In this document: positions 6,584-35,009 of the stretch, one piece after another
How positions within the stretch are numbered: the stretch's first letter is position 1
Layout: each line of letters starts with the position of its first letter
Virus record (IMG/VR): IMGVR_UViG_3300042922_000265
Location: 103,374 to 167,373 of that record
Origin: a virus
Direction: 5' to 3' (one strand)
DNA length: 64,000 bases
The notes under the pieces: generated by a model
What the model saw: the letters and a program-made list of their open reading frames with translations, nothing else
Databases searched by the model: none
Told to the model about the DNA's origin: nothing
Program-made: the position numbers and the translations under genes

Positions 6584-6618
6584 GGCAAGACCTCCTACCC
6601 ATTACGGGGAGAAGGAGA

Positions 6619-6921: not shown

Positions 6922-6974
6922 GGAAGCATCCTCCTGTTCACCTATTCCAGGGGGTCCCAGGTTCCATCGCAGGG

Positions 6975-7334: not shown

Positions 7335-7723
7335 CAGACCAACCGCTTTCCGACGCCGCCGGTGATCGGCACGCCAGAAACATCAGGGCCTGGGGCCGGT
7401 GCGGCAACGACTTCGCCCCGGTGATCATGCCATGGGCACAACTCGACTGCGGCAGACTCCACAATCGCGAAGGCTTCATCCTGATCGTAAAACCAGGGAG
7501 CCCCTCGGAAGGCGGCGATCACAGCGGTGCCGTTGTTGCTGTCCATCGCGGCACAGGCACCCCGGCCCTGAGCGACCATCAAGGCTGAGTCATGGACGAT
7601 CATCAGGTGGACGCCACCCAGGCGGTCTAGATAGCCAGGGACGTCCGCCTGCGCCGGAGATGCCATGATCATGGCTCCAGCTACGGACAGCATGCCTGCG
7701 AGTGCGAATTTTCCGATTGCCAT
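7334..7723 (-). CDS. Secreted DUF732-like protein (leaderless)
   Basis: Signal peptide ending AQA; G..AC...AIVESAAVELCP pattern typical of mycobacterial DUF732. Confidence 0.7.
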   Translation of the reverse strand: MAIGKFALAGMLSVAGAMIMASPAQADVPGYLDRLGGVHLMIVHDSALMVAQGRGACAAMDSNNGTAVIAAFRGAPWFYDQDEAFAIVESAAVELCPWHDHRGEVVAAPAPGPDVSGVPITGGVGKRLV

Positions 7724-7758: not shown

Positions 7759-8266
7759 CCCGGACGATGATCCAGGGAGGCACGCCGTACTTCACGGCCA
7801 GGTGCATCCGCAAGATGTCCCGTGCGACCTGTGGCGCGGTGCTGGGCAGTCTGCGCATCACGTTGCGGATGCGGGAACGCTGGTAGCGCGTCAGGTGGTG
7901 GTATTCACCCTGCCGGGCCTCTGTGGCCCAACCACGAACTCTCGTCGGCCAGGGAGCCGTCCAACCACTGGCACCGCGTACGTCACCGATGCGCCCATCG
8001 AACGTGGGCTCGGCGGTCTGAGACCACCACTTGCCGGGGCGTCTGCCGAACAGCGGGTTATAGGCGCGCCGGTACATGCCGTCTTGTAGGTACTCGCCGA
8101 GCTTCAAGCCCACGGAGAACTCACGACGAAGACGAAGCTCATACTGGTGTGGGCTGAGGATTCCGTGAATCGGCCCGGTGACCAGATCTTCGTCGGCCCG
8201 GTCCAACGCCAGGATGGCCCAAGCCTGGTCTTCCAGGTCTTGGGCCACCCCGTAGTGGAGATCCAC

Positions 8267-20238: not shown

Positions 20239-20646
20239 TCAGAACAGCTTCAACCATCCGGTGACCGGGGCGAGCTTCTCGTCAGTGTCAGGCCCCACCG
20301 CGATGCAGGTGAACGTGGTGCGCCCACCGAACTCGGTGAGCCCGTTGTCGAGGATGGGCGCGGCGATGAGCCCCTGGGCCAGCGCGTCGGTGTAGACGTC
20401 ACTCAACTGGACCTCGGACTCCGCCCGGACGACGACCTTGGTGAAGCTGTTCTGCAGCCACTCGTCGACCAGCAGAGCCTTCTTGGACCACTCCGCCGTC
20501 TCCTCCTCGGTGCCACTGAATCCCTGCAGGTAGGGCAGGACGGCGGCCATGGAGGCGTGGGCGGCCTGGGCCATCAGCTTGCCGCTGCGGACCTTGTGTC
20601 CCTCGGTGTTGCGGAGATCGGTCCGCATGACGATGACCTGCTTCAT
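20239..20646 (-). CDS. Peptidyl-tRNA hydrolase, Pth2 family (second copy)
   Basis: KQVIVMRTDL..GKLMAQAAHAS..TKVVVR..DNGLTEF..TCIAVGP. Confidence 0.92.
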   Translation of the reverse strand: MKQVIVMRTDLRNTEGHKVRSGKLMAQAAHASMAAVLPYLQGFSGTEEETAEWSKKALLVDEWLQNSFTKVVVRAESEVQLSDVYTDALAQGLIAAPILDNGLTEFGGRTTFTCIAVGPDTDEKLAPVTGWLKLF

Positions 20647-21705
20647 TTGTAGTCCTCGAAGTAGCTGATGGCGAGCTTAACGCCGTCGATCTTGGCCGAC
20701 AGACGATTGCGCTCGGCACGCGCGGCGCTCGGATGCAGCTCATCGTGGCGCTCCTGCAACCGGGCCACGGCCCGCTGTAGACGGGACTTGATGTCGGGAT
20801 CGTGGGTCACCTGCAGCTCGTAGCCCATCACCATCAGCTCGTCGCGGATACGCGCGCTGATCACCTTGACGTCGTGATTGCCCTGGTCGTCGGTGAAGTC
20901 CATGCCGAGCATGGCGGCCTCTAGAACCGCGTGGGCTTCAGGCCCGCTCTTGACCGTCTTGATGTAGATCGATGACGTCATGTGAAAACCTCCGTGATGA
21001 GTAGGTAGATGCCGTATCCCAGGGCGAACAGGATGAACGCTGCCAGGATGACGTGGATGATGATCAGGATCACCGCGCGGTCCGCACCACGCACAGGTTG
21101 GAGGTGACCAAGTCGATCTGCAGCGAGTCACCACCGTTGATCTCGACACCCTTGACTCCACGGTCGCGGCTGTACTTGACCATGATGTCGTGATGAAACT
21201 CGTCGTCGTTGTGCGGGTTGAAATGCACGGTCTGGTAGCCGTAGTGCTCCGGGACGTAGATGCGGTTGTCGTAGTCGCCGTACCAGATGCTGGTCTTCTC
21301 CACGGTGCCCAGGTGCTCGGCGAGCTTATCCTGGGCCACCTTGGTGGCGCGGCGGCCCTCAGTGAGGCGCTTCTGCGCCCAGGCGGGCAGCTTGTCCTCG
21401 CGGGGGTCCGGGGTAGCCAGCTCCTCGGGCTTGAGTGGGGGAGGGTGTCGTGTGCTCATGATTGCCTCCTCAGGCGGTTGCGTAGATCTCGATGTGCCAG
21501 GTGGTGCTGACGGGGGTGGGTTGGGTGGTGTCGTCGTCGGGCACCAGCGCAACGCTGGTGATCTTCCAGGCCATGTCGTCGAAATGGATGGTCTGACCCA
21601 CCACGGGCATGACCGGCATGCCGTTGAACCAGCGCGTGACCTGGATGCTGCGCGGGAAAGCTCCGGGGTCCGGGTTGTCCTTGTACCCGGTGACGTGCAT
21701 CCTCA

Positions 21706-22179
21706 TCAGGCTGCCGCGCGCTTGATCGCCTTGCGGATCTTCTCAGAGGCGCGGAAGTCAGCATGCCAGCGATCCTCGATCTTGGCCGAGCCATAGAAGT
21801 TGACGTCGAAGTAGTCGACCTGGATCTCGCTGGCGTCGTAGTTGTAGGACGAATGGATGTCCTTGAGAACCTTCTCGACACCCTGGCCCTTGATGGTCAG
21901 TACCTCGGAGGTGCGACCACGCGAGCAATCCCAGTGGTTGCAGCCGGTCTTGGCCTGGCCGGGGCAGGTCTCCCACATGCCCTCCAGATCGATGGCGGTG
22001 ATGTCGATCGAGCGGCCACCGGAGTAGTTGTCCACCTTCACCGAGTAGTTGCGCATCCCACCGGGAAGCGTGCCCGTCTTGATCGCGGCCTTGATGTCAG
22101 CTCGCATGCTCTTGGCGATCTCGGAAGCGGTGACGTAGGTGGTGGGGCAGTTGCGTCCGGTGAACTTGCGCTCGTACAT
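21706..22179 (-). CDS. LPD29-like domain protein
   Basis: EIAKSMRADIK...YSGGRSIDI...YNYDASEIQVDYFDVNFY; AGGAG SD before ATG 22179. Confidence 0.6.
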   Translation of the reverse strand: MYERKFTGRNCPTTYVTASEIAKSMRADIKAAIKTGTLPGGMRNYSVKVDNYSGGRSIDITAIDLEGMWETCPGQAKTGCNHWDCSRGRTSEVLTIKGQGVEKVLKDIHSSYNYDASEIQVDYFDVNFYGSAKIEDRWHADFRASEKIRKAIKRAAA

Positions 22180-22215
22180 GGTGGTCTCCTGTGGGTGGTG
22201 GTTGCGTGTGTATTT

Positions 22216-22244
22216 AGTATAGCAGACTAGAACGATTGATGCAA
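22216..22244 (-). promoter_or_regulatory. SigA-like promoter with TTCTAG box
   Basis: TTGCAT-CAATCGTTCTAGTCTGC-TATACT. Confidence 0.75.
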
Positions 22245-22249
22245 ACCGT

Positions 22250-22498
22250 TCAGCGCCCGCCATTGGCGGCGTAGTCATCGTTGGCGAGCTTGATCGCGGC
22301 CTGGTAGCCAACCCCTTTGCCGAGATCGTTGAGAACCTCGGTGCCACCATGACCCTGCCGGGTGCGCGGGACGGTGACCTTGGCGATCCATCCACCAAGC
22401 TCGTCGATCTTCTCGACGGTGTACTCGGTGCCGAAGTGGGTCTTGGCGGTCTTCTTGATGCCGTTGATGACGGTGGTGAACTTCAGTGCGTTGCTCAT
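22250..22498 (-). CDS. Small leaderless hypothetical protein
   Basis: ATG 6 nt after CATACT. Confidence 0.75.
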   Translation of the reverse strand: MSNALKFTTVINGIKKTAKTHFGTEYTVEKIDELGGWIAKVTVPRTRQGHGGTEVLNDLGKGVGYQAAIKLANDDYAANGGR

Positions 22499-22504
22499 GA
22501 CTCA

Positions 22505-22533
22505 AGTATGACAGACACTAGAATTTATCGCAA
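22505..22533 (-). promoter_or_regulatory. SigA-like promoter with TTCTAG box, leaderless
   Basis: TTGCGA-TAAATTCTAGTGTCTGT-CATACT-TGAGTC-ATG. Confidence 0.8.
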
Positions 22534-23196
22534 GCTCCCGCCATGGTCTGGCCGATAGACAGAGTGACGACCGAGGAACACCAGATTCATGCGCGCCTGA
22601 TGTGCGTCGGTGGTCTTGTTGGTCGTCAGCGTGCGGCACTTCTTGTCTGGTAGCGATCCACACGTCGGGCAGGTGTATCGCGCGTAGTCGTAGGGGATGC
22701 GACGACGGTCGGTTATCTCATCCTCCATCTCCACTTGAGATTCCAGAACCTGGGCACGGTGGCGCACGGCGTGAAGGGCGGATGCCACCCACGCTGGCAG
22801 TACCACCCCTTCGGCTGGGGGCGCTGACACTGCTGCGGCACAACATCAGGTGTGGTCATCGGTGATTCCTCTCAGCGTTCTCCCGCGCCACCATGCGCAT
22901 CGCCTCCCAGAGATCAGCCATGATGTTGTCCTCCGGGTGGCGCTCATACGGCGGGCACTCGGTGGCGCTGCGGTGATGCAGCCGCCCGTAGCCGCCCCAG
23001 TTCGTGTCCTTGCAATGCGGGTGACGACAGTACTTCTCCGGGTAGAAATGCTCCTGAAAGTGGTCACCGTGACCCTGGTAGGAGTAATCCACCGCGTGCC
23101 GGGGCTTGTGGTCGCCAGGATCACGCACACCGCTAGGGATCGACCGCTTGGCATGCCTGCCGTACAGGAACGCGCCGATGTCGGTCAGAGGGACGC

Positions 23197-24363
23197 TCAT
23201 GATGCCTCCATCCAATCTGCCAGGTGAGAGATGACGTCCTCGTGGGTCAGTTTGCCCTCATCCAGCCGCAGCTCCCAGAGGAAACGCAACGCCTCGCCCA
23301 CGCGCGGACCCTTGGAGAGGCCGGTCAAATCCATCACCTCGGCACCGGACAGGAAGGGCTCGGGATGACCCTCGGCCTCCAGTAGCGTCTCGATGCGACC
23401 GGAGAGGATGTCATCACCCAGCAGTTCCTCCAGCTGAGGCAGTAGGTCACCAGAGATGGCAACCACTCGCCGCACCATAGGCCAGGTCCATTCCGACACC
23501 TCCTGGAATCGCTGCACCCAGGTCACCAGGTTGGTGACGGAACGCTGACGCTCAACGCTCATCCTGAAGCGCTTGGTGATGTCGGTGACCTTGTGCGGGT
23601 CCACCTCCAGCAGCAGGTCCGCCCACGCGGACTCCAGAGTGGCGCGCTGCTTGATCGACGGCGCGGCGATCAGCTCGGGCAGGATCTCCTTGAGCAGGCC
23701 GGTGTGCAGCATCTCCGACAGCCCCCGGAACGGGTCCGGGCTCATCAGCATCCGATCCATCTCCACAGCCTTGCGCTCAGCACTGACCATGTGGATCAGC
23801 TCACGGTTGGCCGCGATGGCCAGCTTCTCCGCGTCACCGACCTTGAAGCCCAGCTGAGCAGCGAAGCGCACTGCGCGCATCATCCGCAGCGGGTCGTCGG
23901 TGAAGGTCTTGACCGGGTCCATCGGCGTCTTGAGCAGCCCCAGGGACAGGGCGGTCTTGCCGTTGAACGGGTCGATGACGTGGTCGTTGAGGCCGAGCTG
24001 AGTAACCTGCATGGCCATCGCGTTGATGGTGAAGTCGCGGCGCTGCAGATCCTCCTCCAGGACCTCGGTGAACGCCACCTCCGGCTTGCGGCCCGGACCG
24101 TCGGTGCGCATCGTGGTGATCTCCACATCGAATCCGTCACGGCGCGCGGCGATGGTTCCGAACCGGGCACCGACGTCCCAGATGGCGTCAGCCCACGAGG
24201 CCAAGATCGCCTGGATCTCATCCGGCTTGGCCGTGGTGGTGAAGTCCCAGTCCTTGACCTCGCGGTTCAGGAGTTTGTCCCGGACGCTGCCGCCGACCAG
24301 GAAGAGCCGATGGCCCGCCTGATCGAACTTCAGCCCGAGGCTGGAGAGAAGTTGGGGGTGCAT
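23197..24363 (-). CDS. cca: CCA-adding tRNA nucleotidyltransferase (class II)
   Basis: LVGGSVRD..DWDFTT, EITTMR, DLQRRDFTINAMA, DDPLRMMRAVRF; TTGACC-18-TAGAAT-7-ATG(24363). Confidence 0.9.
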   Translation of the reverse strand: MHPQLLSSLGLKFDQAGHRLFLVGGSVRDKLLNREVKDWDFTTTAKPDEIQAILASWADAIWDVGARFGTIAARRDGFDVEITTMRTDGPGRKPEVAFTEVLEEDLQRRDFTINAMAMQVTQLGLNDHVIDPFNGKTALSLGLLKTPMDPVKTFTDDPLRMMRAVRFAAQLGFKVGDAEKLAIAANRELIHMVSAERKAVEMDRMLMSPDPFRGLSEMLHTGLLKEILPELIAAPSIKQRATLESAWADLLLEVDPHKVTDITKRFRMSVERQRSVTNLVTWVQRFQEVSEWTWPMVRRVVAISGDLLPQLEELLGDDILSGRIETLLEAEGHPEPFLSGAEVMDLTGLSKGPRVGEALRFLWELRLDEGKLTHEDVISHLADWMEAS

Positions 24364-24396
24364 GAAATCCATTCTAGCCGATAGAGGACTACAGGG

Positions 24397-25068
24397 TCAA
24401 CTGAGTGCGTCGACCACAGCCTGGGCCTCGTCGAACGTGTTGACGGTGACCGTGGTCTTCTTGGCCTTGAGCTGGTACTTCATGTCGGTGACGACAAACC
24501 GCGTCAGGTAGGCGCGGCCCGACTGCACCACGATCTGCTCCACCAAGAAGCGCCCGCTGTTGCTCATCCACTCGCCGGGATAGTCGCCCGTGGGCAGCAG
24601 ATTGCCCGGACGGGTGGCCTCGCGCTGGGGTGTGGGGTCCAGGTGGATCATCACCCCCAGCGCCGAGGACTCCATGCCCTTCTCCCGGCGCAGGTCCCGG
24701 ATGGCCGCCGAGGGCTCGCGCTTCTTGCGCGGGCGACCGGGCGGGCGCTTCTTGGGCTTCTCGGTGAGCTTGGCGGGCTCGGGCGGGGTCCACGCAGGAC
24801 GCTGTGGCCGCACAGGGCGCGGGTCAGGGTGGATGAGCTTGCCCGCGACCTTCTCGTGCGCGTAGGAACCGCACAGCATGCACTGCGGGGCGCGAGGGTC
24901 GTCCACGGTGAAGGGGTGAGCCTCGATGCGCATGTGCGCACGGGCGCGGTCAGTGCCCTCGTCACCGGTACGCCAATGGGTTTTGACCTTGGCGGGTGCC
25001 GTGCGTTCGATCGACGTGGAGGGCATGACCTTGCCGGTCCACAGCCGCGCGCCGTTGGGGGAGGGCAT
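24397..25068 (-). CDS. Hypothetical protein with AT-hook-like GRPRK
   Basis: KKRPPGRPRKK; coupled start. Confidence 0.6.
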   Translation of the reverse strand: MPSPNGARLWTGKVMPSTSIERTAPAKVKTHWRTGDEGTDRARAHMRIEAHPFTVDDPRAPQCMLCGSYAHEKVAGKLIHPDPRPVRPQRPAWTPPEPAKLTEKPKKRPPGRPRKKREPSAAIRDLRREKGMESSALGVMIHLDPTPQREATRPGNLLPTGDYPGEWMSNSGRFLVEQIVVQSGRAYLTRFVVTDMKYQLKAKKTTVTVNTFDEAQAVVDALS

Positions 25069-25492
25069 CAGTCGTCGATGCGCCGGAGTTCCCAGCCGTC
25101 ACCACGGAGGTTGGAGGCCATCCCTCGCAGCTGGGCAAGGCTGACGTCGATAGAGGAGGCTCGCGCCGCCTTGAACAGGATCGCGGCGGGCTTGGCCACC
25201 GGATCGTGCAAGGACAGCGGACCCCAGCTCCTGATGACCTTGTCCAGGGACTGGCCGTGGGCGTCGTCCTCGTGGGAGCCATCCGGGCTGTCCACCCGAA
25301 TGAATCCACCGGACAGTGCGTGATGCTCCCAGACGCTGCCGTCGGGCGTGGAGAACTGCTGGGGAGCCTTGAACGGCACGAGGTTTCCTTCCTTGGTGGA
25401 GATCTCTCTGCGCTCTGCGCAGTCGGGTGAGTTGGGAGACAGGCAGTGCGAAAAGCAACCGCACTCGATGCACTGACTGGGGCGTTGTCCCA

Positions 25493-25756
25493 TCAGATCT
25501 CCTCGGTGGCCTCGACGCGGATGCTGGAGTAGCGCAGGTAGGCCGCGCTGTCCCAGGGGTAAGCCAGCGTGATGCCCGACTTGGCCTTGTTCCAGCGACC
25601 CACGTGGCCACCGGCATTCTTCTGGGCCAACTCCAGCGAACCTGCCCACTCGACGCGGACCTCGCCGTTGTCCTTCTCGAACACGGTGACGTAGGGCATC
25701 CGCTTGCCCTTGCGCTCGAAGGTCTCGCCGTTGATGGTGATCGCGTTGTGGGCCAT
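25493..25756 (-). CDS. Small leaderless hypothetical protein
   Basis: ATG 6 nt after CATACT. Confidence 0.75.
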   Translation of the reverse strand: MAHNAITINGETFERKGKRMPYVTVFEKDNGEVRVEWAGSLELAQKNAGGHVGRWNKAKSGITLAYPWDSAAYLRYSSIRVEATEEI

Positions 25757-25762
25757 GCATTA

Positions 25763-25791
25763 AGTATGACAGAGGCTAGAACTTATTGCAA
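25763..25791 (-). promoter_or_regulatory. SigA-like promoter with TTCTAG box, leaderless
   Basis: TTGCAA-TAAGTTCTAGCCTCTGT-CATACT-TAATGC-ATG. Confidence 0.8.
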
Positions 25792-26155
25792 GCCCCTTTT
25801 TTACGCGGTGCTCCAGGTGGTCGGACCAGCGACCTGACGCCGCAGCAGCACTGCACCCTTGGTGCAGGGGAATCGCTGAGCGCGACCTACGGCGGCCACA
25901 GCGGACGACTCGCTCTTGTGCTCCAGGATGACGCCACCGGGATAACGCACTGCGTACTCCTTGAGCATCAGAACCCCACGTCCTCGACCGTGGTGACGAC
26001 CCGACACAGGCGAACCTGGGAGAAGTCGCCGGAGTCGCGCAGGCCCTGGGCCATGGCTGCAGCGGCCTGCTCCGGGAAGCCGTCACCGATCACCAGGAAC
26101 TTGGGCTCGTCAGAATCCTCGGCCTTCCACTCCAGACGCCAGGTGATCTTGCTCT

Positions 26156-26755
26156 TCATGCCTTCAGGTCCTCTCGTAGCTCCATCAGTAGCTTGCCCAA
26201 CAGGTTCTCCCCCGGCACGGCGATGTGCCTGGGGCAGTTGCACGAGCCCCAGGTCTGGTCGTGCCAGGTGTTGCCCTCGACCAGCAGCTGCCCTTCAGTG
26301 GCCAGCAGCTTGGCCTTCAGGTCGGCGTGCTGAGTGAACTTCGCCCGCAGTACCTTGGCCATCCAGGGGACCTTGTAGTCCTCCCAGTCGGACCGCAGGG
26401 CCAGCTTTTGGCCCGCTCGTTTGGCCTCACCGGCAGTCGGCAACTGAGCGATCCGCAGCACCTCGGGGATCGTGCGGGCCTTGCCCGCCTGGTAGGCGTG
26501 CTCGGTGGTGGGGTAGACGATGTCCTCGACCGACACCGACGCCAGGTAGAAGTTGCTCAAGAACCGGTACTCCCCGTCAAACGAGGTGATCGCCTTCAGG
26601 TCCGGGTTATTGGACCGCATCTTGTCCCGGCGCAGCTGCCAACAGGCCCAGATCAGGTCCTTGTCGTCACTCTCCTCGGCAGCGTCGAAGGCGTACAGGA
26701 ACGCCTCAATCTCGTCGTGATTCTGCGGCCACTTGGGGTCATCCAGGTTGGTCAT
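26156..26755 (-). CDS. NADAR (YbiA-like) family protein
   Basis: FLSNFY...YPTTEHAYQAGK...KFTQH...LVEGNTWHDQTWG...GENLLGKLLMELRE. Confidence 0.92.
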   Translation of the reverse strand: MTNLDDPKWPQNHDEIEAFLYAFDAAEESDDKDLIWACWQLRRDKMRSNNPDLKAITSFDGEYRFLSNFYLASVSVEDIVYPTTEHAYQAGKARTIPEVLRIAQLPTAGEAKRAGQKLALRSDWEDYKVPWMAKVLRAKFTQHADLKAKLLATEGQLLVEGNTWHDQTWGSCNCPRHIAVPGENLLGKLLMELREDLKA

Positions 26756-26936: not shown

Positions 26937-27959
26937 TCACCGCAGCACCAGTACCTGGGTGTTGGGCATCAGGTTGCGGTTCACCGAGGTGGATTGCACG
27001 AACACGTCGTAGTCCTTGTGGTGAGCCGGATCGACCTTGACCTCGTAGTCGGGCAAACCGAGCAGCTGACGGGCCGCAGCGCCCGTGTAGACACCCTTGG
27101 CACCCCGGATGGCGATCTGCTTGGACGCCTGGATGGTCTCGCGCTTGGTCAGCTGGTAGAACGCGCTGCCCTTGCGGTAGGGCTCGCCGCTGGACTCGGC
27201 CACGAACTCGTCGATCCGGCACTTCTCCGGGCCGACGTTGTAGAGGTCGAAGTCCTTGCCCTTGATCGGGATCAAGTTGACCTTGACCTCGGCCAGGCTC
27301 GGGGTGGTGATGCTGAACAGCTGCTTGGTGCCACGCACGCCCGCGCGGCGGGCTTGCATGAACGACTCGGTGGCGTCGCGCATGACCTCACCGGCTTTCT
27401 CCAGGCCCTGGTGGTCATTGACGTCCCAGACAGCGATGTTGGCCGCCGGGAAGCCGTTCTGCTGCGCGCGGCTGCGACCGTACTCGTCTGGGACGAACGT
27501 GGCCACGGTCCAGTGCTCGGGCAGCCGGTCGATACGGGTGCGCAGCGTGTAGCTGGAGTTGCGGGACACATTCTCGATACCGTCGGTGAGGACGTAGACC
27601 AGGAAGCTGTGCTCACCGTAGATCTCGGGGGTGAGGGTCAGGTCCTCGATCGCCTTGAGGGTGCCATCGATCAGCGGAGTGTTTCCGTACGGGCTGTAGA
27701 GGCCCGCGATGGACGGCATCCGCAGCACGTCCTTGTCCCAGACCAAGCAGTCGATCTTGGGATGCGGGTATCCGCCGAAGGTGTAGACGGTGATGCGAGT
27801 TTCCTGGTCCAGATCCTTGGACCGCTCCGCCAGATGTGCGATCTGGTTGTCAGCCACCTTGATGAGCGACTGAGCGTTGCGTCCTTCCATCGACGTAGAG
27901 GCGTCGAGTACCAGGACGATGTGGTTGATGATGTTTGCCGGTGCGGCTACTGCAGACAT
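26937..27959 (-). CDS. von Willebrand factor A domain protein
   Basis: MIDAS motif LVLDASTSM, GNTPLID, VLTDGIEN. Confidence 0.85.
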   Translation of the reverse strand: MSAVAAPANIINHIVLVLDASTSMEGRNAQSLIKVADNQIAHLAERSKDLDQETRITVYTFGGYPHPKIDCLVWDKDVLRMPSIAGLYSPYGNTPLIDGTLKAIEDLTLTPEIYGEHSFLVYVLTDGIENVSRNSSYTLRTRIDRLPEHWTVATFVPDEYGRSRAQQNGFPAANIAVWDVNDHQGLEKAGEVMRDATESFMQARRAGVRGTKQLFSITTPSLAEVKVNLIPIKGKDFDLYNVGPEKCRIDEFVAESSGEPYRKGSAFYQLTKRETIQASKQIAIRGAKGVYTGAAARQLLGLPDYEVKVDPAHHKDYDVFVQSTSVNRNLMPNTQVLVLR

Positions 27960-28056
27960 GGCTTTTACTCTGTTCTGTGAGTTCTGATTGTGTGTGGTGG
28001 TTTGGTGCGGTGTCTCGGGGGGTGAGCCTACCCCGAGACGTCGACAAGGTGAAGGG

Positions 28057-29070
28057 TCAGTCTTCGTCGGAGTAGCGCAAGGTGCCGTCGTCGTCGCGGA
28101 CGACGGTCTGGCGGATGTCCTCGATCCAGCGGATGCCCTTGCCTCCGCCACCGGCCTGGATCTTGGTGATCTCCTCGCCCATCATCCAGCGGTTGTACGC
28201 GCCGATGACGGTGTCGAAGTTGCGCAGCAGGAAGGGCAGGTGCGTGCCGCCAGTGCGCACCAGCTGGCCCGTACGGCTGATGTAGCGACGCACCGGCTTG
28301 ACGATGTTGCCCAGGCCCGACTCGGAGCTGTAGGTGCCCTCGGCGATGGCGGTGAAGAACTCGGCGATCGTGTCGGGGTTGGCACCGTCGCGCTCCATGA
28401 TGATGGCCAGCGCGGTCAACGGACCCTCGGCGATGGCCCGCTTGGGCTTCATCAGACCACGGCCCAGCTGGTTATCGCTGCTGACCATCAGGTTGCAGCT
28501 CTTGTAGACCGAGGCGGCCCAGGAAGCCCAGCCCTCCAGCTCGTCGCGGTTCTCCACGATCGTCTCGGCGACTCTGGCCCGGTTGGTGGAGTAGCGATCC
28601 AACTCGCGGTCGCCCTGCATCAGGATCAGCTGAGCAGCGGCCATCGTGGAAGCGTTGCGCAGCTTGTGACCCTGCAGCTTGAGCACCTGGGGCACCGTGC
28701 GGATCATGTCGCCGGTGTCGATGGTGGCCAGGCAGTCGATACCGAGTCCGCGCACCACGAGCAGTGGTACTGTCTTGCGCGCCTTGGTGATGGCCGTCAG
28801 GCGGTGCTGTCCGTCGATCAGACGGCCCTGACTGTCGAACTTGATGGTCTCACCGTTGAAGGCGAAGCTACCGTTGAGGATGTCATTGGTCCGGTCTTCG
28901 ATGCGGGTGCTGTTCATATCCCGGTTGTTCGGGATGTTGAGCTTGAGCCACTCGGCGGCCAGCTCCGGGGTCACACGAACGTATTCGACGATGATGGTGT
29001 TGCCGGTCGGGTCCGTGAAGATCATGTCATTGGACGCGGTCCCTGTGGGGTGGAACGAAACGGACGTCAT
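28057..29070 (-). CDS. ParB/DGQHR-like domain protein
   Basis: NNR...NGETIKFD..GRLIDGQHRLTAI. Confidence 0.7.
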   Translation of the reverse strand: MTSVSFHPTGTASNDMIFTDPTGNTIIVEYVRVTPELAAEWLKLNIPNNRDMNSTRIEDRTNDILNGSFAFNGETIKFDSQGRLIDGQHRLTAITKARKTVPLLVVRGLGIDCLATIDTGDMIRTVPQVLKLQGHKLRNASTMAAAQLILMQGDRELDRYSTNRARVAETIVENRDELEGWASWAASVYKSCNLMVSSDNQLGRGLMKPKRAIAEGPLTALAIIMERDGANPDTIAEFFTAIAEGTYSSESGLGNIVKPVRRYISRTGQLVRTGGTHLPFLLRNFDTVIGAYNRWMMGEEITKIQAGGGGKGIRWIEDIRQTVVRDDDGTLRYSDED

Positions 29071-29114
29071 GATTCCTTCTCTGTGGGTGGATCGGTGCAG
29101 TTGTAAATCGGGCG

Positions 29115-29187
29115 TGGACCGGACGGGACTCGAACCCGCATCTCGCGCATACGTCGGCTCTACTCCGGGGACTTGAGCTACCGGCCC
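29115..29187 (-). ncRNA. tRNA-Ala-like RNA with collapsed anticodon arm
   Basis: GGGCCGG/CCGGTCC-A (G3.U70, A73); D stem GCTC/GAGC with 14-nt loop; T arm GCGGG-TTCGAGT-CCCGT. Confidence 0.7.
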
Positions 29188-29198
29188 TTAATCTATCG

Positions 29199-29262
29199 CG
29201 GGCGTCGGGGAATCGAACCCCGATAGCGGCCTCTCGATGGCCGCGCTGACCTTTCAGCGCCC
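29199..29262 (-). ncRNA. Compact non-canonical tRNA-like RNA (loop AT-CGA-GA)
   Basis: GGGCG/CGCCC-G; CTGA-AAGG-TCAG; GCGGCC-ATCGAGA-GGCCGC; TCGGGG-TTCGATT-CCCCGA. Confidence 0.65.
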
Positions 29263-29264
29263 TC

Positions 29265-29371
29265 GGAGAGCGACAGGGAGCTACCCCGTCCTCTCCTGTG
29301 TCGGTTCCAGGAGAGAGCTGTACCGATTCGGCAGCGGCGGCTAACCCTGCTCCCCTTCGGTCTCGTTCTCC
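29265..29371 (-). ncRNA. Structured RNA with long bulged terminal stem
   Basis: GGAGA/TCTCC, GAC/GTC, bulged CGAA, GGGGAGC/GCTCCCT; internal CTCTCCTG/CAGGAGAG. Confidence 0.5.
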
Positions 29372-29432
29372 TGGTCCCTCATCTCGCTTCAGGCTCACAG
29401 TCGCCATAAACCCAGGCCCTATCACGAGATTG

Positions 29433-29507
29433 CTCCCCGCCCAGGTCTCGAACCTGATAACCACGCCTCGCGAAAGGTCGTTGCGCCCACCTGCTGGGCT
29501 GCGGGGA
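29433..29507 (-). ncRNA. tRNA-like RNA with distorted anticodon arm
   Basis: TCCCCGC/GCGGGGA-G; GCCCA-GCAGG-TGGGC; TCAGG-TTCGAGA-CCTGG. Confidence 0.65.
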
Positions 29508-29511
29508 CTAG

Positions 29512-29655
29512 AGAGGTCATCGGGGCTCGAACCCGATACGGTCTGACAGAGGCGGCCACCTCCATCAGCGCACTGCCTTCCGTTTTCATCTCGCCCTGCC
29601 ACGTCCGGGATGGCCGTCCCTCGCGCTTTCAGGTCCGATATAGGCAGTTGACCCC
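29512..29655 (-). ncRNA. 144-nt tRNA-like RNA with large inserted arm
   Basis: GGGGTCA/TGACCTC; TCGGG-TTCGAGC-CCCGA; ACTGCCT/AGGCAGT encloses about 60 nt; hairpin CTGATGGAGG/CCTCTGTCAG. Confidence 0.6.
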
Positions 29656-29682
29656 ATGTGGCAGTACGATGCCAGCGCTCGG

Positions 29683-29952
29683 TCAGGCCGAGGGGTTACC
29701 AGCGGACTTCGGGCCGGTCTTGCCCGCTCCACCGCCGCCGAAGCGGATCGGCGGGTGGCCGTCGTCGCCGATGCTCCACGCCTTGCGCGGCTCCTTCTTG
29801 CCCTCGTAAGGCTTCATGGTGTCGTCGTTGCGCGGGGTGCAGATGCTGCCGAGTGCCGGGAGTCCGGGGCAGGGCGCTGCGGAGGCGACAGGAGCGCCGA
29901 TGCCGGTGGCGGTGACACCCGCGATGGCGAGGGCGATGAGAGTCTTCTTCAT
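29683..29952 (-). CDS. Small secreted protein
   Basis: Signal peptide MKKTLIALAIAG...ASA; GGAAGGA SD. Confidence 0.7.
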   Translation of the reverse strand: MKKTLIALAIAGVTATGIGAPVASAAPCPGLPALGSICTPRNDDTMKPYEGKKEPRKAWSIGDDGHPPIRFGGGGAGKTGPKSAGNPSA

Positions 29953-30753
29953 GATGGAAAGTCCTTCCGTTTGACGGTTGTTTGATTGGTTCTACACAGA
30001 TACTACAGGGCGTTCTCTCGATAGTCTAGCAGCTATCAGTCCTCGTGTGTCACCTCCGCATTCATGGCCCAGGTGAGCAGGTGGGTCAGCACCGGCGCGG
30101 CATTGATGGTGACGACATCGGTGCTCGGCGGTTCACGCGTGGTCCAGTAAGTCACCTCGATCTCCGCACAACCCTGACGGAACTCCACGGTCTGGATGTC
30201 GCTGGGACTGATGGAGGGCCAGTCGTGGGCCGATTCGTAGACCTCGTTGCAGATGGCCCGCTTGATGCTCACTTCTTCTCCTGGGCGTCAATCCATGCCC
30301 GGACAGCGGGACGCATACCGCCGTTGCGGTGCTCCTGGATGCGCTTGATGCGCGCCAGGTCAAGACGGTACTCGCCCCAGGCGAAGGTCAGCGCCCACCA
30401 GTGGCGCTCGAAGAAGTCATGCAGTCGGTTCATGCGTAATGCCTTTCTTCCAGAACGAAGGTGCCGGTGCGGATCAATTCGGAGACGACTTCCAACTTCC
30501 GACGCTTGATGTGCTTGGTGCACACGATCGGATGGCCGGGTTGACCAGAATCCCAGTGCCGATAGGTGGCGCGGCGGAGCTGGCCCGACACCGTGTACTC
30601 GATGTAGAGAGCCTCGTCAGTAGAGGTGACCAGCTCGACATACGTGCCGCCACTGCCGTGGTTGATGTCTCCGGATGCGTCACGAACCCACAACTTCTGC
30701 TGGCGGGTGACTTCGCTGATCTTCTTACGGTCGGTGTCGCGGCTCATGACTCA

Positions 30754-30782
30754 AGTATGACACAAGCTAGAACTTATTGCAA
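30754..30782 (-). promoter_or_regulatory. SigA-like promoter with TTCTAG box, leaderless
   Basis: TTGCAA-TAAGTTCTAGCTTGTGT-CATACT-TGAGTC-ATG. Confidence 0.8.
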
Positions 30783-31810
30783 GTCCTTGAGTGCGTTCTC
30801 CCACGCCACAGTGATCGCCAGGTCCTGGAATCCGAACTCCCACTCGACATGGCGGGCGAAGTCCTCCCAGTCGTCATAGTCGGGCACCAGACCGTTGTAG
30901 CAGTCCTTCGCGTGACCGTACCGATAGGAGTCGTATCCACAGGCCCAGCAGCCAGGGCCGAGCGTCAGGTCGCAGTCAGGCATCAGAGATTCACCTTCAT
31001 CTGTGGCCACGCGGGCTTGAACCGCAGAAAGGCCATGCCGTTGACGCAGACCCAGATGCGACCATCGCTGGCCACCTGGACACCGACGTCGACCATCTTG
31101 CCCTCCTCGGCGAACCGGTTGATCTCGTCGATGATCTCGGCGTGGTTACAGATACCCAGGCTGCCCTGCTGATGGACCTCGGGATATTCGTCGATCATGA
31201 GAGTCTGGTCACCTTGGCATGGGCGGACAGCTGGTTGATGTGCGGCTCCCCGGTACAACGCACTCCCGCTAAGCTAACCGCGCCCTCGGCGCTCACACGC
31301 ATCCACTCAACGGTAAACCAAATAGAGCCGATGAGCTGAACACGGTCACCGATCTGGATCTCGGTGGCCAGGACGACGCGGGCCGCGCCGATCACAGAGT
31401 CACCTCGGCGGCAATGATCGCCACCAGCATCGCGGCGGCCACGATGCCGCAACCGATGCCCATGTTGATCGCGGCTCCACCGATGACGAACCCGGCGATA
31501 GACAGTCCCGCCACGATCGCCAGCAGAGTCAGGATGAACGCCATCAGGCACCGAACCGATCCAGCTCGTCGTGGATCTCGGCGTCGATGCTGTCCTCGAC
31601 GTCGGTGGTTTTGGAGAGGTCGCGGATGTGGACCTCGATGACGTCTTCGCTGTGGAAGGGGCGGACCATGACCGCGCCGCACTTGTCGCGGCAGACCGCG
31701 ATGATCTCGACGTGCTCGGTGCCCATCGCGACCTCTTCCTCCTGAGTGCGGTCAACGACGGTGTAGATGGCGGTCTCGTGGATCTTGAAGGTCTCGTTGC
31801 TCATGACTCA

Positions 31811-31839
31811 AGTATGACAGACACTAGAACGATATGCAA
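31811..31839 (-). promoter_or_regulatory. SigA-like promoter with TTCTAG box, leaderless
   Basis: TTGCAT-ATCGTTCTAGTGTCTGT-CATACT-TGAGTC-ATG. Confidence 0.8.
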
Positions 31840-32704
31840 GTCTTTCGGCTCGCATTCTCTCGTGCACCATGTCCGGTGACATGCAGCTGTCGCAGGCCCA
31901 GACGCCCAGAGCGGGCCATTCCGGGGGCACCCAGTGGGCACCAGGTGAGCGGCAGGCCGAACAGATGCCCAGCCCGACGCTCACCCCGGTGATCGGTCGC
32001 ATTTACTTGGCCGCGTGCGAACGCAGGGCGTTCGACTTGGTGACCGTGACGCGCTGACCGCAGTCGTTGCAGATGCCGTAGTTACCGGCGCAGTAGCCCA
32101 GGCGGGCGGTCGCGCGATCGTAGTTGTGGGTCAGCGAGCCCTTGCACTTGCTGGCCTCGGCAGCCGCCTTCTTCTCAGCCTTGGCCTTGGCCTCGGGCGA
32201 GACGAACATCTTGGTCGGCTGGGCCAGGATCTCGACCGGAGCGGAGGGGAAGCACACGGTGCAGGCCATGCAGCCAGCGGCCTCGACGATCTCGGCCTCG
32301 TCCTTGCCCGAGTAGTCGATCATCCAGGCGTACTGCGTGGTGATGAAGCAGGTGCTGCAGTTCATCGAGCTGTGCACGTGGCCGTTGCTGTTGCTCACCA
32401 GGAAGGCGCGGCTCCAGCCACCACGGCGGACGTACTCGTTCTCGTAGGGCAGGGCCTCGGCCTTGATGGGCACCAGCTGCTCGCGCAGCGCGGGGATGCG
32501 GGCCTCGTACTTCTCGGCCAGACCATCGTAGTGCTTGAAGCCCTGCTTGACCGCCTTACGGGCGCTGCGAGCCTTGTCGTTGATGTCAGCGATCTGGGTC
32601 TGCACGGCGTTGATGCGACCCCAGATCTCAGAGAGGATGGTGTCGATCTCGGCGGGGGTCATGATGGTCAGGTCGGCGGTGGCGGTTCCGTTGCTCATGC
32701 ATTA

Positions 32705-32734
32705 ACTATAGCATAGTAGAACTTTTACACGCAA
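32705..32734 (-). promoter_or_regulatory. SigA-like promoter (TTCTAC variant), leaderless
   Basis: TTGCGT-18-TATAGT-TAATGC-ATG. Confidence 0.75.
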
Positions 32735-34191
32735 GTCCTGCGCTGAAGACCCTTCAAGATGATCCGCCAGGACGGCGGCTCGGTGAGCAGACGTTCATGG
32801 TCGTAGTCGTAGACCGGGAACATCACCGACCACTCATGGCCACAATCGCACGGCAGGCCATCGGCACGCACACGCGCGCAGATGCTGCACTCCATCTGGG
32901 CCATCATTTGTGCCGCGCGCGTTCTCTGCTGCTCTTCGGCATCCGTTCGATCGTCTTGATCAGAGCGCGCTTGCGCCAGTTATACCAGCGCACCTTCTCC
33001 CAGTTGCGGCCAATGCCACCAGCCCAGGTGATGCCGCGCATCGAGTACTTGTACCAGTACCGACCGCAGCCATCGCATTGCCAGATCGATCCCACCGGGC
33101 GGTCACAACCGTAGCTGCCCGGATAGTCGCATTGGTGGCCATAGTCCACAGGCGGAGGCACAGGGGCGCGGTAGATGTCACCCACGAGCGTCCGCCCATT
33201 CCTTGGGCATGAAGCCACCCGAGGACAGCCAGGTGTCGAGCTGGATGGCGAACGTGGCCGCCTCCTCCCAGTCGTCACGGTTGACGGCGTCGCGCAGGTT
33301 GGTCAGAACGGCATCGGGGTCCATCAGTCTTCTTCCTGTCCGGTGAGCTTGTTGATGCGGTAGTAGTTCGGTCCCGAACGCCAGCCCGCAGGCCGGTCAT
33401 CGGTGGTGCGCTTACAGCAGGGCAGCTCAAACACCGAGCAGTCGGTATAGCGCTGCAGCACCTTGGCGGCACCGAGATCGAAGATCTGCCCGCACGTGCA
33501 GCGCGCGGGAAAGTTCATGCCCTTGATCTCGGCCAGATGATCAGGCCGATAGTAGGGCAGCGTCACGGCCTCGCTCCGATCGCGCGCACCGGGAACTTCG
33601 GTTTCCAGTCCATCAGCGTTCGGTAGTCGGTGGTGTCTTCCTCGGTCGCCTCAGCACCGTAGTGATACATGTAGCCCTCGGCGTTGGTCAGGTAGTACGA
33701 GATCCCGATCAGGTCACCCTGGTCAGTCGCGGCGGTGAGGAACACGGTCCCGGCATCATCGACACAGGCCAGCTCGGCCACCACGGCCTCGTCGTAGTTC
33801 ATCACCGTGATGCGCTCATGCAGCTCCTCCTCGGTGGAGAAGATCCTGACCTCGCTCATCCAAACACCTCATCCAGGATGCCCTCGATGACATTGCCGAT
33901 GCCCCTAGCGATAGCCCGGAAGAAGTTGGCGACCCTGCGCCCCGCTCGGCGGATCATGGCTTGGCCGTCAGTCTGTCGACCACAGCGGGACGCTTGGCCT
34001 GCTTGGGCGAGGTGATGCGCTGACCGCTGGTCAAAGTCGCCCCGGTGATCTTGTTGGCCCGGATGCGGATCTGCACCCGTTCGTTGCCGCGTTCGTAGAC
34101 GCGGGTCCACCAACCCAACAGACCGGTGCTCTGGCGCTTCCAGCCGTTGTTCTCGGCCAGCTTGTCGATGTCGTTCAATGTGTCTGCCACG

Positions 34192-34297
34192 TGCCCGTCA
34201 GGGAGTCGAACCCCGCCAGCACTCGGATCACGCGGTCAAGCGAAGGTCCTAGACCCTCTCCCTACGTGTCTTCGCTTCCAGCCCTCGCTGGACGAGC
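34192..34297 (-). ncRNA. tRNA-like RNA with long arm replacing the anticodon arm
   Basis: GCTCGTC/GACGGGC-A; CAGC-GAGG-GCTG; AAGCGAAG/CTTCGCTT; GGGG-TTCGACT-CCCT. Confidence 0.6.
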
Positions 34298-34438
34298 TTG
34301 CCCGGATGAGCGCCGGGACTTGGTGATGCGATCAGGCCCTGAAGGAGGCTGGTTCCCGGCGGCTTCTATTCCGGGGCCTCTAGGTCTATTATCGCGGTTC
34401 TCACGTAGCTCTCCCTTCCCGTGGGTGGATCGGTGCGC

Positions 34439-34818
34439 ATCAACAACTCAACAGAGAATCTGGCCAGCGAACCCTTGCTTACCCTCCCCGCTTTGTGCGC
34501 ACGCCACGGTTCTTCTCGGTCATCAGGTCTGCTGTTTGACACGGACACTTCACGGTGCATGGGGTCATGACTCCCCACTTACTCCGGCTCGGCCCTCGAC
34601 TTCGCTCCCCGTCTCCATGCTCTCCTCCACCGTTCGTTCAGGGATCGCTCTCCTGCTGGCCGGGCTCACCGTCTCGCGGATACCGCACAATGCGGGATCG
34701 TTGTACCTGGGGTCTTGCGCAGCGCTGGGAGAGTCGTGGTCGTTAGCCGTCAGCGGTGGGATCTCGGAGTTGGTTGGAAGGCACCTCGTCGGTCCAGATT
34801 CTCTGTTCGGTTGTCGAT
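34439..34818 (-). ncRNA. ~380-nt highly structured non-coding RNA
   Basis: Begins 6 nt after a -10 box; 5' ATCGACAAC-CG-AACAGAGAATCTGG pairs with CCAGATTCTCTGTT-GA-GTTGTTGAT; nested internal stems. Confidence 0.7.
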
Positions 34819-34824
34819 GGTTCA

Positions 34825-34853
34825 AGTATAGCAGCTCCTAGAAGGAACTACAA
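34825..34853 (-). promoter_or_regulatory. SigA-like promoter with TTCTAG box driving the ncRNA
   Basis: TTGTAG-TTCCTTCTAGGAGCTGC-TATACT-TGAACC-A. Confidence 0.75.
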
Positions 34854-35009
34854 CCCTGCTGAGCGGTTGGCTGCTCGCATCTGCGCCTGGGCAGAACGGT
34901 TCGACGTGAACACGCCCTTCACCTCGACAGAGAGGACCTTGCCCTCATCGTCACGCTTCACCGTGACGAGATTGCCCTGGCGGTTGATGTAGTGGCCTGC
35001 GTTGCTCAT
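34848..35009 (-). CDS. 53-aa leaderless protein (below ORF-track cutoff)
   Basis: MSNAGHYINRQG...; ATG 6 nt after CATACT of promoter 35016-35044. Confidence 0.7.
   Translation of the reverse strand: MSNAGHYINRQGNLVTVKRDDEGKVLSVEVKGVFTSNRSAQAQMRAANRSAGL

Follow-up and report, generated by a model that had tools for sequence, protein, structure and literature searches.

A cluster of probable non-decoding tRNA-like RNA genes in a Myrna-like mycobacteriophage

We have analysed a non-coding gap in a window (the whole stretch of DNA under analysis, 64,000 nt in length) from the genome of a Myrna-like mycobacteriophage. The best explanation of its contents, to which we assign a probability of about 0.55, is a row of separate small RNAs that resemble the top half of a tRNA and do not decode, with three structured hairpins between them. 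The four tRNA-like elements, here called el1 to el4, appear to copy the acceptor stem, T arm, elbow and N73-C74 end of tRNA without a working anticodon arm, and would act via the acceptor end and the elbow. On the basis of sequence comparison, it is likely that they are selected non-decoding RNA genes and not decaying tRNAs, attP scars, a tmRNA or Y RNAs; we regard them as selected look-alikes and not dead tRNA genes because relatives preserve them via compensating mutations. The original prediction had proposed a family of non-decoding tRNA mimics; the non-decoding mimics stand, whereas the single family does not, since el1 to el4 are four distinct families. Our literature searches found no description of these RNAs.

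Locus layout and detection of the elements

The gap extends over 612 nt (29071-29682 of the window), and the four elements lie where they had been predicted, all on the minus strand; the cluster occupies 132488-133028 of the whole 167-kb genome. Along the minus strand the order is el4, el3, hairpin A, hairpin B, hairpin C, el2 and el1. A 191-aa ORF runs across the gap, and because its GC3 is 0.58, against 0.83-0.89 in the adjoining genes, we regard it as non-coding and have rejected a coding reading of the gap. Genes for a CCA-adding enzyme (at about 5 kb), PTH2 and NADAR are located downstream of the cluster on the same strand. Phabba and Myrna have the motif TAGTACAAT 5' of el4, whereas the window lacks it.

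All four elements possess an acceptor stem and a T arm and terminate in N73-C74. The C74 that follows every element, as predicted, also follows nearly all of the 35 tRNAs assigned to this genome by ARAGORN, and CCA is not encoded. Our strict scan, which accepts only T stems with all 5 bp paired, loops of the form TTCRANN and acceptor stems with 7/7 pairs immediately next to the T arm, recovers el1 (29115-29187), el3 (29433-29507) and el4 (29512-29655). The same scan gave 0-2 matches per sequence (mean about 0.2) in 20 Markov random sequences simulated with the dinucleotide transitions of the genome, each at whole-genome length (167 kb). These three elements combine a 7-bp acceptor stem with a 5-bp T stem carrying the T-loop consensus; el2 has 5 + 6 bp instead. 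Scan and folds together bear out the predicted combination of acceptor and T arm with non-canonical middles, and a conserved 5-bp anticodon stem with a 7-nt loop and a conserved anticodon is found in none of the four.

Computer programs for known RNAs recovered these elements in part. ARAGORN called none of the four, as had been expected, and found no tmRNA in the gap. With the Rfam tRNA model (RF00005; gathering score 29), el1 scored 34.3 bits and el2 28.1 bits, and there was no match for el3 or el4. The Rfam E-value search of the gap gave only weak tRNA and YrlA matches and no other family, and RNase P RNA or another large known RNA was rejected on this lack of an Rfam match; the Rfam search of 30000-35000 gave nothing useful.

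Searches for relatives by sequence gave few results. No match was obtained when the 3 kb surrounding the site were compared by megablast with 50,697 phage records, the sole blastn match of the gap was the copy of el1 in mycobacteriophage Whirlwind, and blastn of hairpins A-B gave no real match. A search for related loci with a 337-aa neighbour protein found no relatives, and three loci with a 47% identical vWA protein (L005-L007) have no comparable RNA gap. The sets available for comparison are small (3-12 sequences) and partly related, so shuffle statistics overstate significance. Among these relatives the modules come and go, Myrna having only el4 and el3, Phabba lacking el1 and L021 having only el1, which means that each module is dispensable in some backgrounds.

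The alanine-type element el1

The element el1, supported by the Rfam tRNA model, its fold and an eight-member comparison, is a tRNA-Ala derivative with a reduced anticodon arm, and its nearest canonical relative is a phage tRNA-Ala. It is 73 nt long and has G1-C72, G2-C71, G3·U70, A73-C74 and a normal T arm, and its 14-nt D loop contains UCCCCGGA. The middle comprises 17 nt against the 23 expected, with a 4-bp stub and a tetraloop instead of an anticodon arm. The eight members come from the window, from Whirlwind and from six metagenomic or IMG/VR phage contigs; across the family the stub has 3-4 bp, and its sequence varies while the hairpin stays. None of the eight departs from G1-C72, G2-C71, G3·U70, A73 or C74, and the D arm with its loop octamer and the T arm do not vary either. 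Six pairs are altered on both sides in this comparison; such two-sided changes affect 4:69, 5:68 and 6:67, and 7:66 is altered in L026. Because the complete AlaRS identity set (G3·U70, A73 and G1-C72/G2-C71) is present in every member, el1 is probably alanylated by AlaRS, as judged from its sequence.

The surroundings of el1 were compared in six contexts, and these have no common protein partner, only various DUFs. A CCA-adding enzyme is not present in the other records bearing el1. We also observed a P-loop kinase 4 kb from el1 in one contig. Two contigs, one of 17 kb and one of 56 kb (79% complete), have el1 as their sole match to the tRNA model. A tmRNA reading of el1 was rejected on its length of 73 nt and because the RF00023 search of the genome lists the true tmRNA of the phage elsewhere (G000:C1:44185-44617), and not el1.

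Elements el2 to el4 and the hairpins

The 64-nt el2 (29199-29262, minus strand) is supported by its fold, a Phabba homologue and a group of 41-nt elements, here called minis, together with an Rfam tRNA score just below the gathering score. Its acceptor has 5 bp and its T stem 6 bp, as predicted; between them lie a D-like hairpin of 4 bp, a 6-bp stem capped by the loop AUCGAGA and a variable region of 3 nt. The 3' end is G73-C74, and residues 8-9 are missing. In the Phabba homologue, the acceptor and the stems are compensated and the body is otherwise conserved. The acceptor/T core is common to the minis of L018 and L028, which have no anticodon arm and only a 10-11-nt linker as their middle, and minis form arrays in related contigs. 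In all, we found 11 more elements with the 5 + 6-bp core, and many of the pairs are compensated.

The 75-nt el3 is cloverleaf-like and is supported by its fold, the strict scan and homologues in Phabba, L018 and Myrna. It has the closing stem UCCCCGC/GCGGGGA, a T arm and G73-C74, and its middle arm is formed by 9 irregular bp and a tetraloop, without an anticodon loop. Homologous four-way junctions with an identical closing stem are present in Phabba and L018, and the Myrna version is compensated; the T-loop consensus has been lost in Phabba and Myrna, which leaves the window and L018 as its only carriers. The 144-nt el4, supported by the strict scan, its fold and a covariance model, is tRNA-like with a 7-bp acceptor including G2·U71, a T arm and U73-C74, and its 112-nt middle forms two long arms, each capped by a GGCC-containing loop. 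A model built from Phabba and Myrna only (R1) matches el4 of the window end to end (30.5 bits, E about 1e-4), and 13 of 32 pairs are compensatory in an alignment fitted to the structure of this model. In Myrna, one of these RNA genes is hidden within an over-extended ORF.

One long-stem RNA had been predicted beside the four elements; there are actually three hairpins, all found by folding on the minus strand. Hairpin A (29381-29430) has a counterpart in Phabba and in the metagenomic relative L018, and the Phabba equivalent encloses GGCUUAUGGCG. The long one, hairpin B (29303-29378), matches no Rfam family and likewise recurs in Phabba and L018, where both its stem and its apex motifs are found, the conserved apex being GGUUAGCC(G/U)CC..CCGAAUC(C)GG. 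Hairpin C (29265-29296) is GC-rich, has 13 bp and no U tract 3' of it, and was not called as a terminator; at its site, Phabba has a hairpin that is alike in shape and unrelated in sequence.

The arm-by-arm comparison places the variation on the anticodon side, with the acceptor, D and T parts held, as anticipated, and the compensatory changes in el1, el4 and el2 argue for selection and not random decay. The relatives carry non-canonical shapes and not canonical tRNAs with evenly spread mutations. Since the odd shapes are shared and are accompanied by compensatory changes, the pseudogene outcome that the original prediction had set against itself fails, and its reading stands.

Discussion

The ends of the elements are of the tRNA type, and for this reason we infer that the RNAs are probably excised by RNase P and RNase Z like the phage tRNAs and that their 3' ends are probably completed to CCA by the CCA-adding enzyme encoded by the phage. 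As to their role, we tentatively propose, at well below even odds, that they serve as competitive substrates (decoys or sponges) for proteins whose recognition of tRNA is confined to its acceptor end or elbow. Such decoys would most likely be aimed at host or prophage anti-phage toxins inactivating tRNA 3' ends, such as the MenT/AbiEii nucleotidyltransferases or the toxSAS pyrophosphokinases, e.g. PhRel of mycobacteriophage Phrann, and the decoys would spare the real tRNA pool. MenT1 acts on an isolated acceptor stem with CCA and modifies it (PMC10435456), tRNA CCA ends are pyrophosphorylated by toxSAS enzymes including a mycobacteriophage one (bioRxiv 10.1101/2021.04.30.441581), and FaRel2 chooses tRNAs by the acceptor stem (bioRxiv 10.1101/2024.07.05.602228). 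The link of such toxins to the present RNAs is a conjecture drawn from plausibility in this literature only. Specific partners are suggested by the octamer UCCCCGGA of el1 and by the GGCC-containing loops of el4, and a generic decoy model leaves these unexplained.

The tRNA-like units might alternatively be punctuation for processing, their main task being to mark the sites at which RNase P and RNase Z cleave a long transcript, with the tRNA-like pieces as by-products. Cleavage would then free hairpins A-C as small RNAs and set the 5' end of the downstream mRNA. The units indeed stand head to tail with spacers of 4-11 nt and hairpins interspersed, a scan of the gap found no promoter or terminator, and a start codon lies 31-63 nt downstream of el1 in five of six contexts. 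For cleavage, however, an acceptor/T minihelix suffices, so that the alanine set, the octamer and the T-arm sequence kept by el1 across unrelated phages would be unexplained, as would the two conserved arms of el4; moreover, the genes downstream of el1 vary between phages. We consider this explanation unlikely.

Two further proposals start from the alanine identity of el1. A rather unlikely one is that el1 represents a phage-specific class of anticodon-less alanine acceptors, charged by the host AlaRS and used outside the genetic code. Such uses would be message-less, tmRNA-like rescue or blocking on stalled ribosomes, or service as an alanine donor or bait for an enzyme, with UCCCCGGA as the handle for a specific partner; el2, el3 and el4 would then be parallel mimics with other partners, the whole constituting a phage toolkit of tRNA top-half mimics. 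Quite unlikely, in our view, is the proposal that el1 is a working alanine carrier which delivers alanine outside normal decoding, either by entering stalled ribosomes with SmpB in a tmRNA-like manner without a message, or by supplying a tRNA-dependent aminoacyl transferase. The identity set fixed in 8/8 members amid drifting adjoining pairs is what such a carrier should have, its anticodon arm is cut to a stub like that of the tmRNA tRNA-like domain, and the tmRNA and PTH2 of this phage, together with an RF-like protein in relatives, represent an investment in ribosome rescue and tRNA turnover. Against this, we could link el1 to no gene for a transferase or for SmpB, and the contigs having only el1 are without such genes in the parts examined; an alanine donor without a resume codon has no known ribosomal use, and the proposal is silent on el2, el3 and el4.

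It is very unlikely that the RNAs are Y-RNA-like partners of the phage Ro60 or of the neighbouring vWA protein. The phage does encode a TROVE/Ro60 protein (ORF at about G000:C1:6600-7650), mycobacteriophage Y RNAs have tRNA-like domains (PMC4201824), and a vWA gene lies downstream of the cluster in the window as well as in Phabba, Myrna and L018. The YrlA match (RF02553), however, reaches only 18.2 bits (E 0.76) against a gathering score of 69, and runs from el1 into the next gene; the ends of Y RNAs make the Ro-binding stem where the present elements have an acceptor stem and a discriminator base. The cluster and the Ro60 gene do not adjoin, being about 41 kb apart across the genome ends, and among the phages with el1 are some in which we saw no Ro60 near it.

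Functionless tRNA pseudogenes in decay, or attP remnants, are a highly improbable explanation. Decay might be expected because the phage has as many as 35 tRNAs, and rejection by ARAGORN and the loss of individual modules in relatives agree with it; on the other hand, the odd features are common to distant phages and are kept by compensatory changes, and el1 is the only tRNA-like gene in the two contigs mentioned above. The pseudogene reading is thereby largely refuted by covariation already. An attP site or tRNA 3'-end fragment was also rejected, since each acceptor stem has both of its strands and these co-vary, neither of which an attP core needs, and since the D-arm signature of el1 did not occur in a set of 185,579 bacterial and archaeal species with one genome each. 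Hardly credible, finally, is a decoding el2, an unusual mini-tRNA with anticodon CGA reading UCG: it keeps a formal 7-nt loop with U33 and a purine at 37, folds stably (z -4.05) and comes close to the Rfam threshold, but the Phabba loop GUUAUAA puts the anticodon UAU on the conserved body, close relatives of the acceptor/T core are wholly without an anticodon arm, the acceptor has only 5 bp with residues 8-9 missing, and there is no long variable arm of the kind required by SerRS for tRNA-Ser.

The usual explanations for tRNA genes in phages are codon supply and the replacement of tRNAs cut by host nucleases. Conserved non-decoding RNAs of the present type would point to a second phage use of the tRNA shape, that is, engaging the readers of the acceptor end and elbow, which include synthetases, EF-Tu, the CCA-adding enzyme, RNase P and acceptor-end toxins. 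The element el1 yields a clear biochemical prediction, alanylation through G3·U70, and is present in Whirlwind, an isolated and genetically tractable phage of M. smegmatis. If the decoy idea is true, mycobacterial systems of the MenT/AbiE or toxSAS type would be met here by a counter-defence made of RNA. Annotation can also be corrected, as standard tRNA finders overlook these genes and the one in Myrna is masked by a gene call.

Comparison with known systems

The tRNA-like domain of tmRNA and el1 are alike in G3·U70, A73, an acceptor and T arm without an anticodon arm and an altered D region, and among the four elements el1 is the only one with G3·U70 and A73. Unlike tmRNA, el1 lacks an mRNA-like domain and pseudoknots; it is the remnant of a cloverleaf, closed, 73 nt long and with its D stem intact.

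Y RNAs with tRNA-like domains have been reported (Chen et al. 2014, PMC4201824; Rfam RF02553). YrlA and the mycobacteriophage Y RNAs are similar to the present elements in being non-coding, in occurring in Ro60-encoding mycobacteriophages, in mimicking the T and D arms and in being handled by tRNA enzymes. Their ends, however, form the Ro60-binding stem at the place of the anticodon stem and their 'acceptor' is closed by a loop, whereas the present elements have a true acceptor stem and N73-C74 at their ends.

RNA species I and II of phage T4, which are presumably similar in size to el4 and for which we know of no function, are alike in being stable small RNAs that are co-matured among phage tRNA genes. 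They are encoded in the T4 tRNA gene cluster (PMC2330249). We found no homology in sequence or structure between them and the present elements, and the host phylum differs.

The vtRNAs of the MHV68 TMER genes and mascRNA are cut by RNase P and RNase Z, CCA-tailed, non-decoding and linked to hairpin RNAs, and the MHV68 tRNA-miRNA units and MALAT1/mascRNA are the model for regarding tRNA-like units as processing punctuation. These systems are eukaryotic, unlike the present elements, and they do not account for the alanine identity and the covariation-protected middles. The pseudo-ToxI repeats of phage ΦTE mimic a type III antitoxin RNA and neutralise an abortive-infection toxin; they are a precedent for arrays of small structured RNAs in a phage, with a fold and a target that differ from those of the present elements.

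Acceptor/T-arm minihelices and microhelix-Ala serve in the laboratory as substrates for AlaRS, RNase P and the CCA-adding enzyme, and an acceptor plus T-arm stack with G3·U70 suffices for alanylation and end processing. It is to the same acceptor/T core that el2 and the 41-nt minis reduce, the stack in the el2 family being of 11 bp (5 + 6) instead of 12 bp (7 + 5). Unlike the synthetic minihelices, however, the elements found here are natural, conserved genes.

The RNA cluster and its coding status

The cluster occupies a 612-nt gap that opens after the stop codon of a gene for an 89-aa protein with a signal peptide (29683–29952) and closes at the start codon of one for a 337-aa protein (28057–29070), in a phage genome of 167,373 bp with direct terminal repeats, of which bases 103374–167373 make up the window; the minus strand carries all 35 tRNAs called by ARAGORN and all genes surrounding the cluster. 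On this strand we found four tRNA-like elements and three hairpins in the order el4 (29655–29512), el3 (29507–29433), hairpins A (29430–29381), B (29378–29303) and C (29296–29265), el2 (29262–29199) and el1 (29187–29115). The original prediction had described the three hairpins as one long-stem RNA, which is the sole correction to what it observed. A long ORF crosses the gap, but its GC3 is 0.58 versus 0.83–0.89 in the adjoining genes, and the gap is therefore regarded as non-coding.

A strict scan required a TTCRANN loop on a perfect 5-bp T stem, directly adjoined by a 7/7 acceptor stem, and recovered el1, el3 and el4; random sequences as long as the whole genome, simulated from its dinucleotide transitions, gave about 0.2 matches each. 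Element el2 was recognized by its 5-bp acceptor and 6-bp T stem, and the predicted tRNA-like elements are confirmed. Each of the four is followed by C74, as the prediction had stated, with CCA not encoded, the same pattern as in the real tRNAs of the genome. Standard finders were expected to miss them or score them low, and ARAGORN called none of the four; the Rfam tRNA model (threshold 29 bits) gave no match for el3 or el4, 28.1 bits for el2 and, above threshold, 34.3 bits for el1. The analysis establishes that el1–el4 are conserved, structured, non-coding and non-decoding RNAs with tRNA-type ends, on comparative sets that are small.

Structure and conservation of the elements

The acceptor strands of el1, GGGCCGG/CCGGUCC followed by A73, contain the alanine identity set (G1-C72, G2-C71, G3·U70 and A73), and among canonical genes tRNA-Ala(UGC) of Rhodococcus phage Dorin stands closest to it. 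Element el1 has a normal D stem (GCUC/GAGC), a 14-nt D loop with UCCCCGGA inside, and only 17 nt, a 4-bp stub with a tetraloop, between the D and T stems. A blastn search found an unannotated copy in the cluster L mycobacteriophage Whirlwind, and pattern scans of IMG/VR and metagenome contigs with the D-arm signature added further copies, giving eight distinct members; in 185,579 bacterial and archaeal species, one genome each, this signature had no real copy, the only matches being chance ones within Phenylobacterium coding sequence. The identity set, C74, the D arm, the D-loop octamer and the T-arm sequence are invariant in all eight. In the seven that were aligned, pairs 4:69, 5:68 and 6:67 are altered on both sides, and the stub varies in sequence while retaining a 3–4-bp hairpin; the alignment as a whole has six pairs altered on both sides and 96% of cells paired, values that no shuffle reached, and the eighth member, on phage contig L026, contributes A7-U66.

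Two contigs, one of 17 kb and one of 56 kb (79% complete), have el1 as their sole tRNA-model match; it is therefore not a by-product of a tRNA array, and the variation of its flanking genes from phage to phage argues against cis-regulation of one particular gene. On contig L029 (G002), where el1 is the only tRNA-like gene, a P-loop nucleotide kinase 3 (PF18751; 5483–6067, plus strand) lies 4.4 kb from it.

The fold of el2 is highly stable (z −4.05). From a 5-bp acceptor it passes through a 4-bp hairpin, a 6-bp stem closed by loop AUCGAGA and three variable nucleotides to a 6-bp T stem and G73. The mycobacteriophage Phabba has the same architecture with a compensated acceptor (GCCCG/CGGGC versus GGGCG/CGCCC) and compensation in both inner stems; its loop is GUUAUAA instead of AUCGAGA, and the "anticodon" is therefore unconserved. 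Arrays of five and six tRNA-like units of 40–42 nt occur in metagenome contig L018 (8419–9330, minus strand) and IMG/VR contig L028 (5100–5900, minus strand), each unit having el2's 5+6-bp acceptor/T stack, a 10–11-nt linker and an A-C-G end, and one unit per array matches the acceptor and T arm of el2 exactly. Because these units share the stack with so short a linker, the conserved core of the family is the acceptor/T-arm stack and the middle is optional. In these relatives of the phage, the units are spaced by about 130–170 nt, with G-rich spacers crowded with GGCNNGG-like repeats.

Element el3 is a four-way junction whose closing stem, UCCCCG/CGGGGA, is shared by the window, Phabba and L018; the el3-like RNA of Myrna has a compensated version (UCCCAUG/CAUGGGG). 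The inner arms persist though their sequences differ, and none has a 7-nt anticodon loop. Selection on the elbow, as originally proposed, is weakened for el3 alone, because only the window and L018 copies show its T-loop consensus. The invariant D-loop stretch of el1, GUCCCCGGAG (29165–29172), is a near repeat of the 5' strand of the el3 closing stem, GUCCCCGCAG (29501–29507), with UCCCCG in common in the window and UCCCCGG in L018, so that it could pair with the el3 3' strand.

Phabba and Myrna have el4 homologues of 120 nt each, in which an acceptor stem and T arm accompany two long arms, both capped by loops that contain GGCC. A covariance model built from these two sequences only had the window el4 as its top match in 146 kb of DNA, end to end (30.5 bits, E about 1e-4). 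In the alignment, which was fitted to the model structure and so favours pairing, 13 of 32 pairs are altered on both sides with all cells paired; G2·U71, the CCUAUAUC stretch and the GGCC loops are retained. The self-complementary GGCC is present in the loops of both long arms in all three phages (window 29512–29655; Phabba 6567–6686; Myrna 6419–6538), and these loops may kiss or mediate dimerisation.

Phabba and L018 also have hairpins A and B, the apex of B being conserved as GGUUAGCC(G/U)CC..CCGAAUC(C)GG; hairpin C of Phabba is alike in shape and unrelated in sequence. No Rfam family matches A, B or C.

Relatives and turnover of modules

Directly downstream, a vWA protein (26937–28151) has 67–72% identity to gp18 of Myrna and the homologue of Phabba, both cluster C2 mycobacteriophages, and 67% identity to a protein on the 12.4-kb contig L018. 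As listed, its ORF extends 95 nt into the upstream gene and homology begins only near residue 68, for which reasons the real start is probably internal. Paired with it (26937–29070, minus strand) is the 337-aa protein, phrog_5931, whose distant relatives are annotated as ParB-like or DNA-binding.

The equivalent cluster occupies an unannotated gap in Phabba (6534–7021; el4, el3-like, A, B, C, el2) and lies beneath an over-extended start of gp17 in Myrna (el4, el3-like), while L018 has el3, A, B and el1, and contig L021 has el1 alone behind a signal-peptide gene. From these differing layouts among five phages and contigs, the units are separate modules gained or lost singly. In Myrna, the annotated gp17 start (6413) traverses the el4 and el3 homologues (6413–6650), and translation likely begins instead at the ATG near 6647, which follows a GGAGG motif, as in Phabba.

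Possible functions

Judging from ends and spacing, RNase P and RNase Z would mature these RNAs like the phage's tRNAs, and a CCA-adding enzyme would then complete the 3' ends. AlaRS requires only the acceptor identity set, and el1 is probably alanylated. The phage has its own CCA-adding enzyme (23197–24372) on the strand of the cluster; with PTH2 (20239–20646) and NADAR (26156–26755) it lies downstream in 20239–26755 (minus strand), an apparent neighbourhood of tRNA-end maintenance and counter-defence functions.

Mycobacteria and their prophages have anti-phage or toxin systems acting on the acceptor end. MenT1 can elongate an isolated acceptor stem at its 3' end (PMC10435456), the CCA end is where toxSAS enzymes, among them PhRel from the mycobacteriophage Phrann, add pyrophosphate (bioRxiv 10.1101/2021.04.30.441581), and for FaRel2 it is the acceptor stem that guides the choice of tRNA (bioRxiv 10.1101/2024.07.05.602228). 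On this basis we propose, speculatively (probability about 0.3), that the RNAs are putative decoys for enzymes reading only the acceptor end. That the tRNA-like units instead serve as processing punctuation is rather unlikely; that el1 acts as an alanine carrier is less probable still. A role as Y-RNA-like partners of proteins is very doubtful: the YrlA-type assignment is rejected at 18.2 bits versus a threshold of 69, the ends pair as an acceptor stem and not as the Ro-binding stem formed by Y RNA ends (PMC4201824), and the Ro60 gene is far off. Neither decoys nor these alternatives explain the el1 D-loop octamer and the el4 GGCC loops, which hint at specific partners.

Other assignments were rejected. 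The original prediction would have given way to tRNA pseudogenes had relatives carried canonical tRNAs at these positions with mutations spread evenly; the odd features are common to several phages and guarded by compensation. Against attP cores speak the two acceptor strands, which both exist and co-vary, and the lack of the sequence in any host (185,579 species, one genome each). For tmRNA, the tmRNA model has no match to el1, and the real tmRNA is at G000:C1:44185–44617.

Other RNAs and comparison with known RNAs

This tmRNA (minus strand, whole-genome coordinates, outside the window) scores 58.4 bits versus the Rfam threshold of 47, escapes ARAGORN run with its default settings and, unlike the phage tRNAs, encodes CCA. 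Also outside the window, a 580-aa TROVE/Ro60 ORF (G000:C1:~6600–7650, minus strand) has just upstream a weak tRNA-model match (7867–7932, minus strand), probably the tRNA-like domain of a Ro60-associated Y RNA. Within the window, a 74-nt element (31002–31075, minus strand) absent from the original list has a perfect 7-bp acceptor (GUGGCCA/UGGCCAC), a T arm with loop UUCAAGC and A73, with no ARAGORN or Rfam call. Two further acceptor and T-arm elements missed by ARAGORN, both on the minus strand, have 83 nt with G73 (3402–3484, its acceptor common to the adjoining Ser-type tRNA) and 106 nt with a 6-bp acceptor (34192–34297).

No annotation covers the RNAs of the cluster in Phabba or Whirlwind, an ORF overlies them in Myrna, and we found no description of them in the literature. 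Within the known broad kind of tRNA mimics, they seem to constitute four new families.
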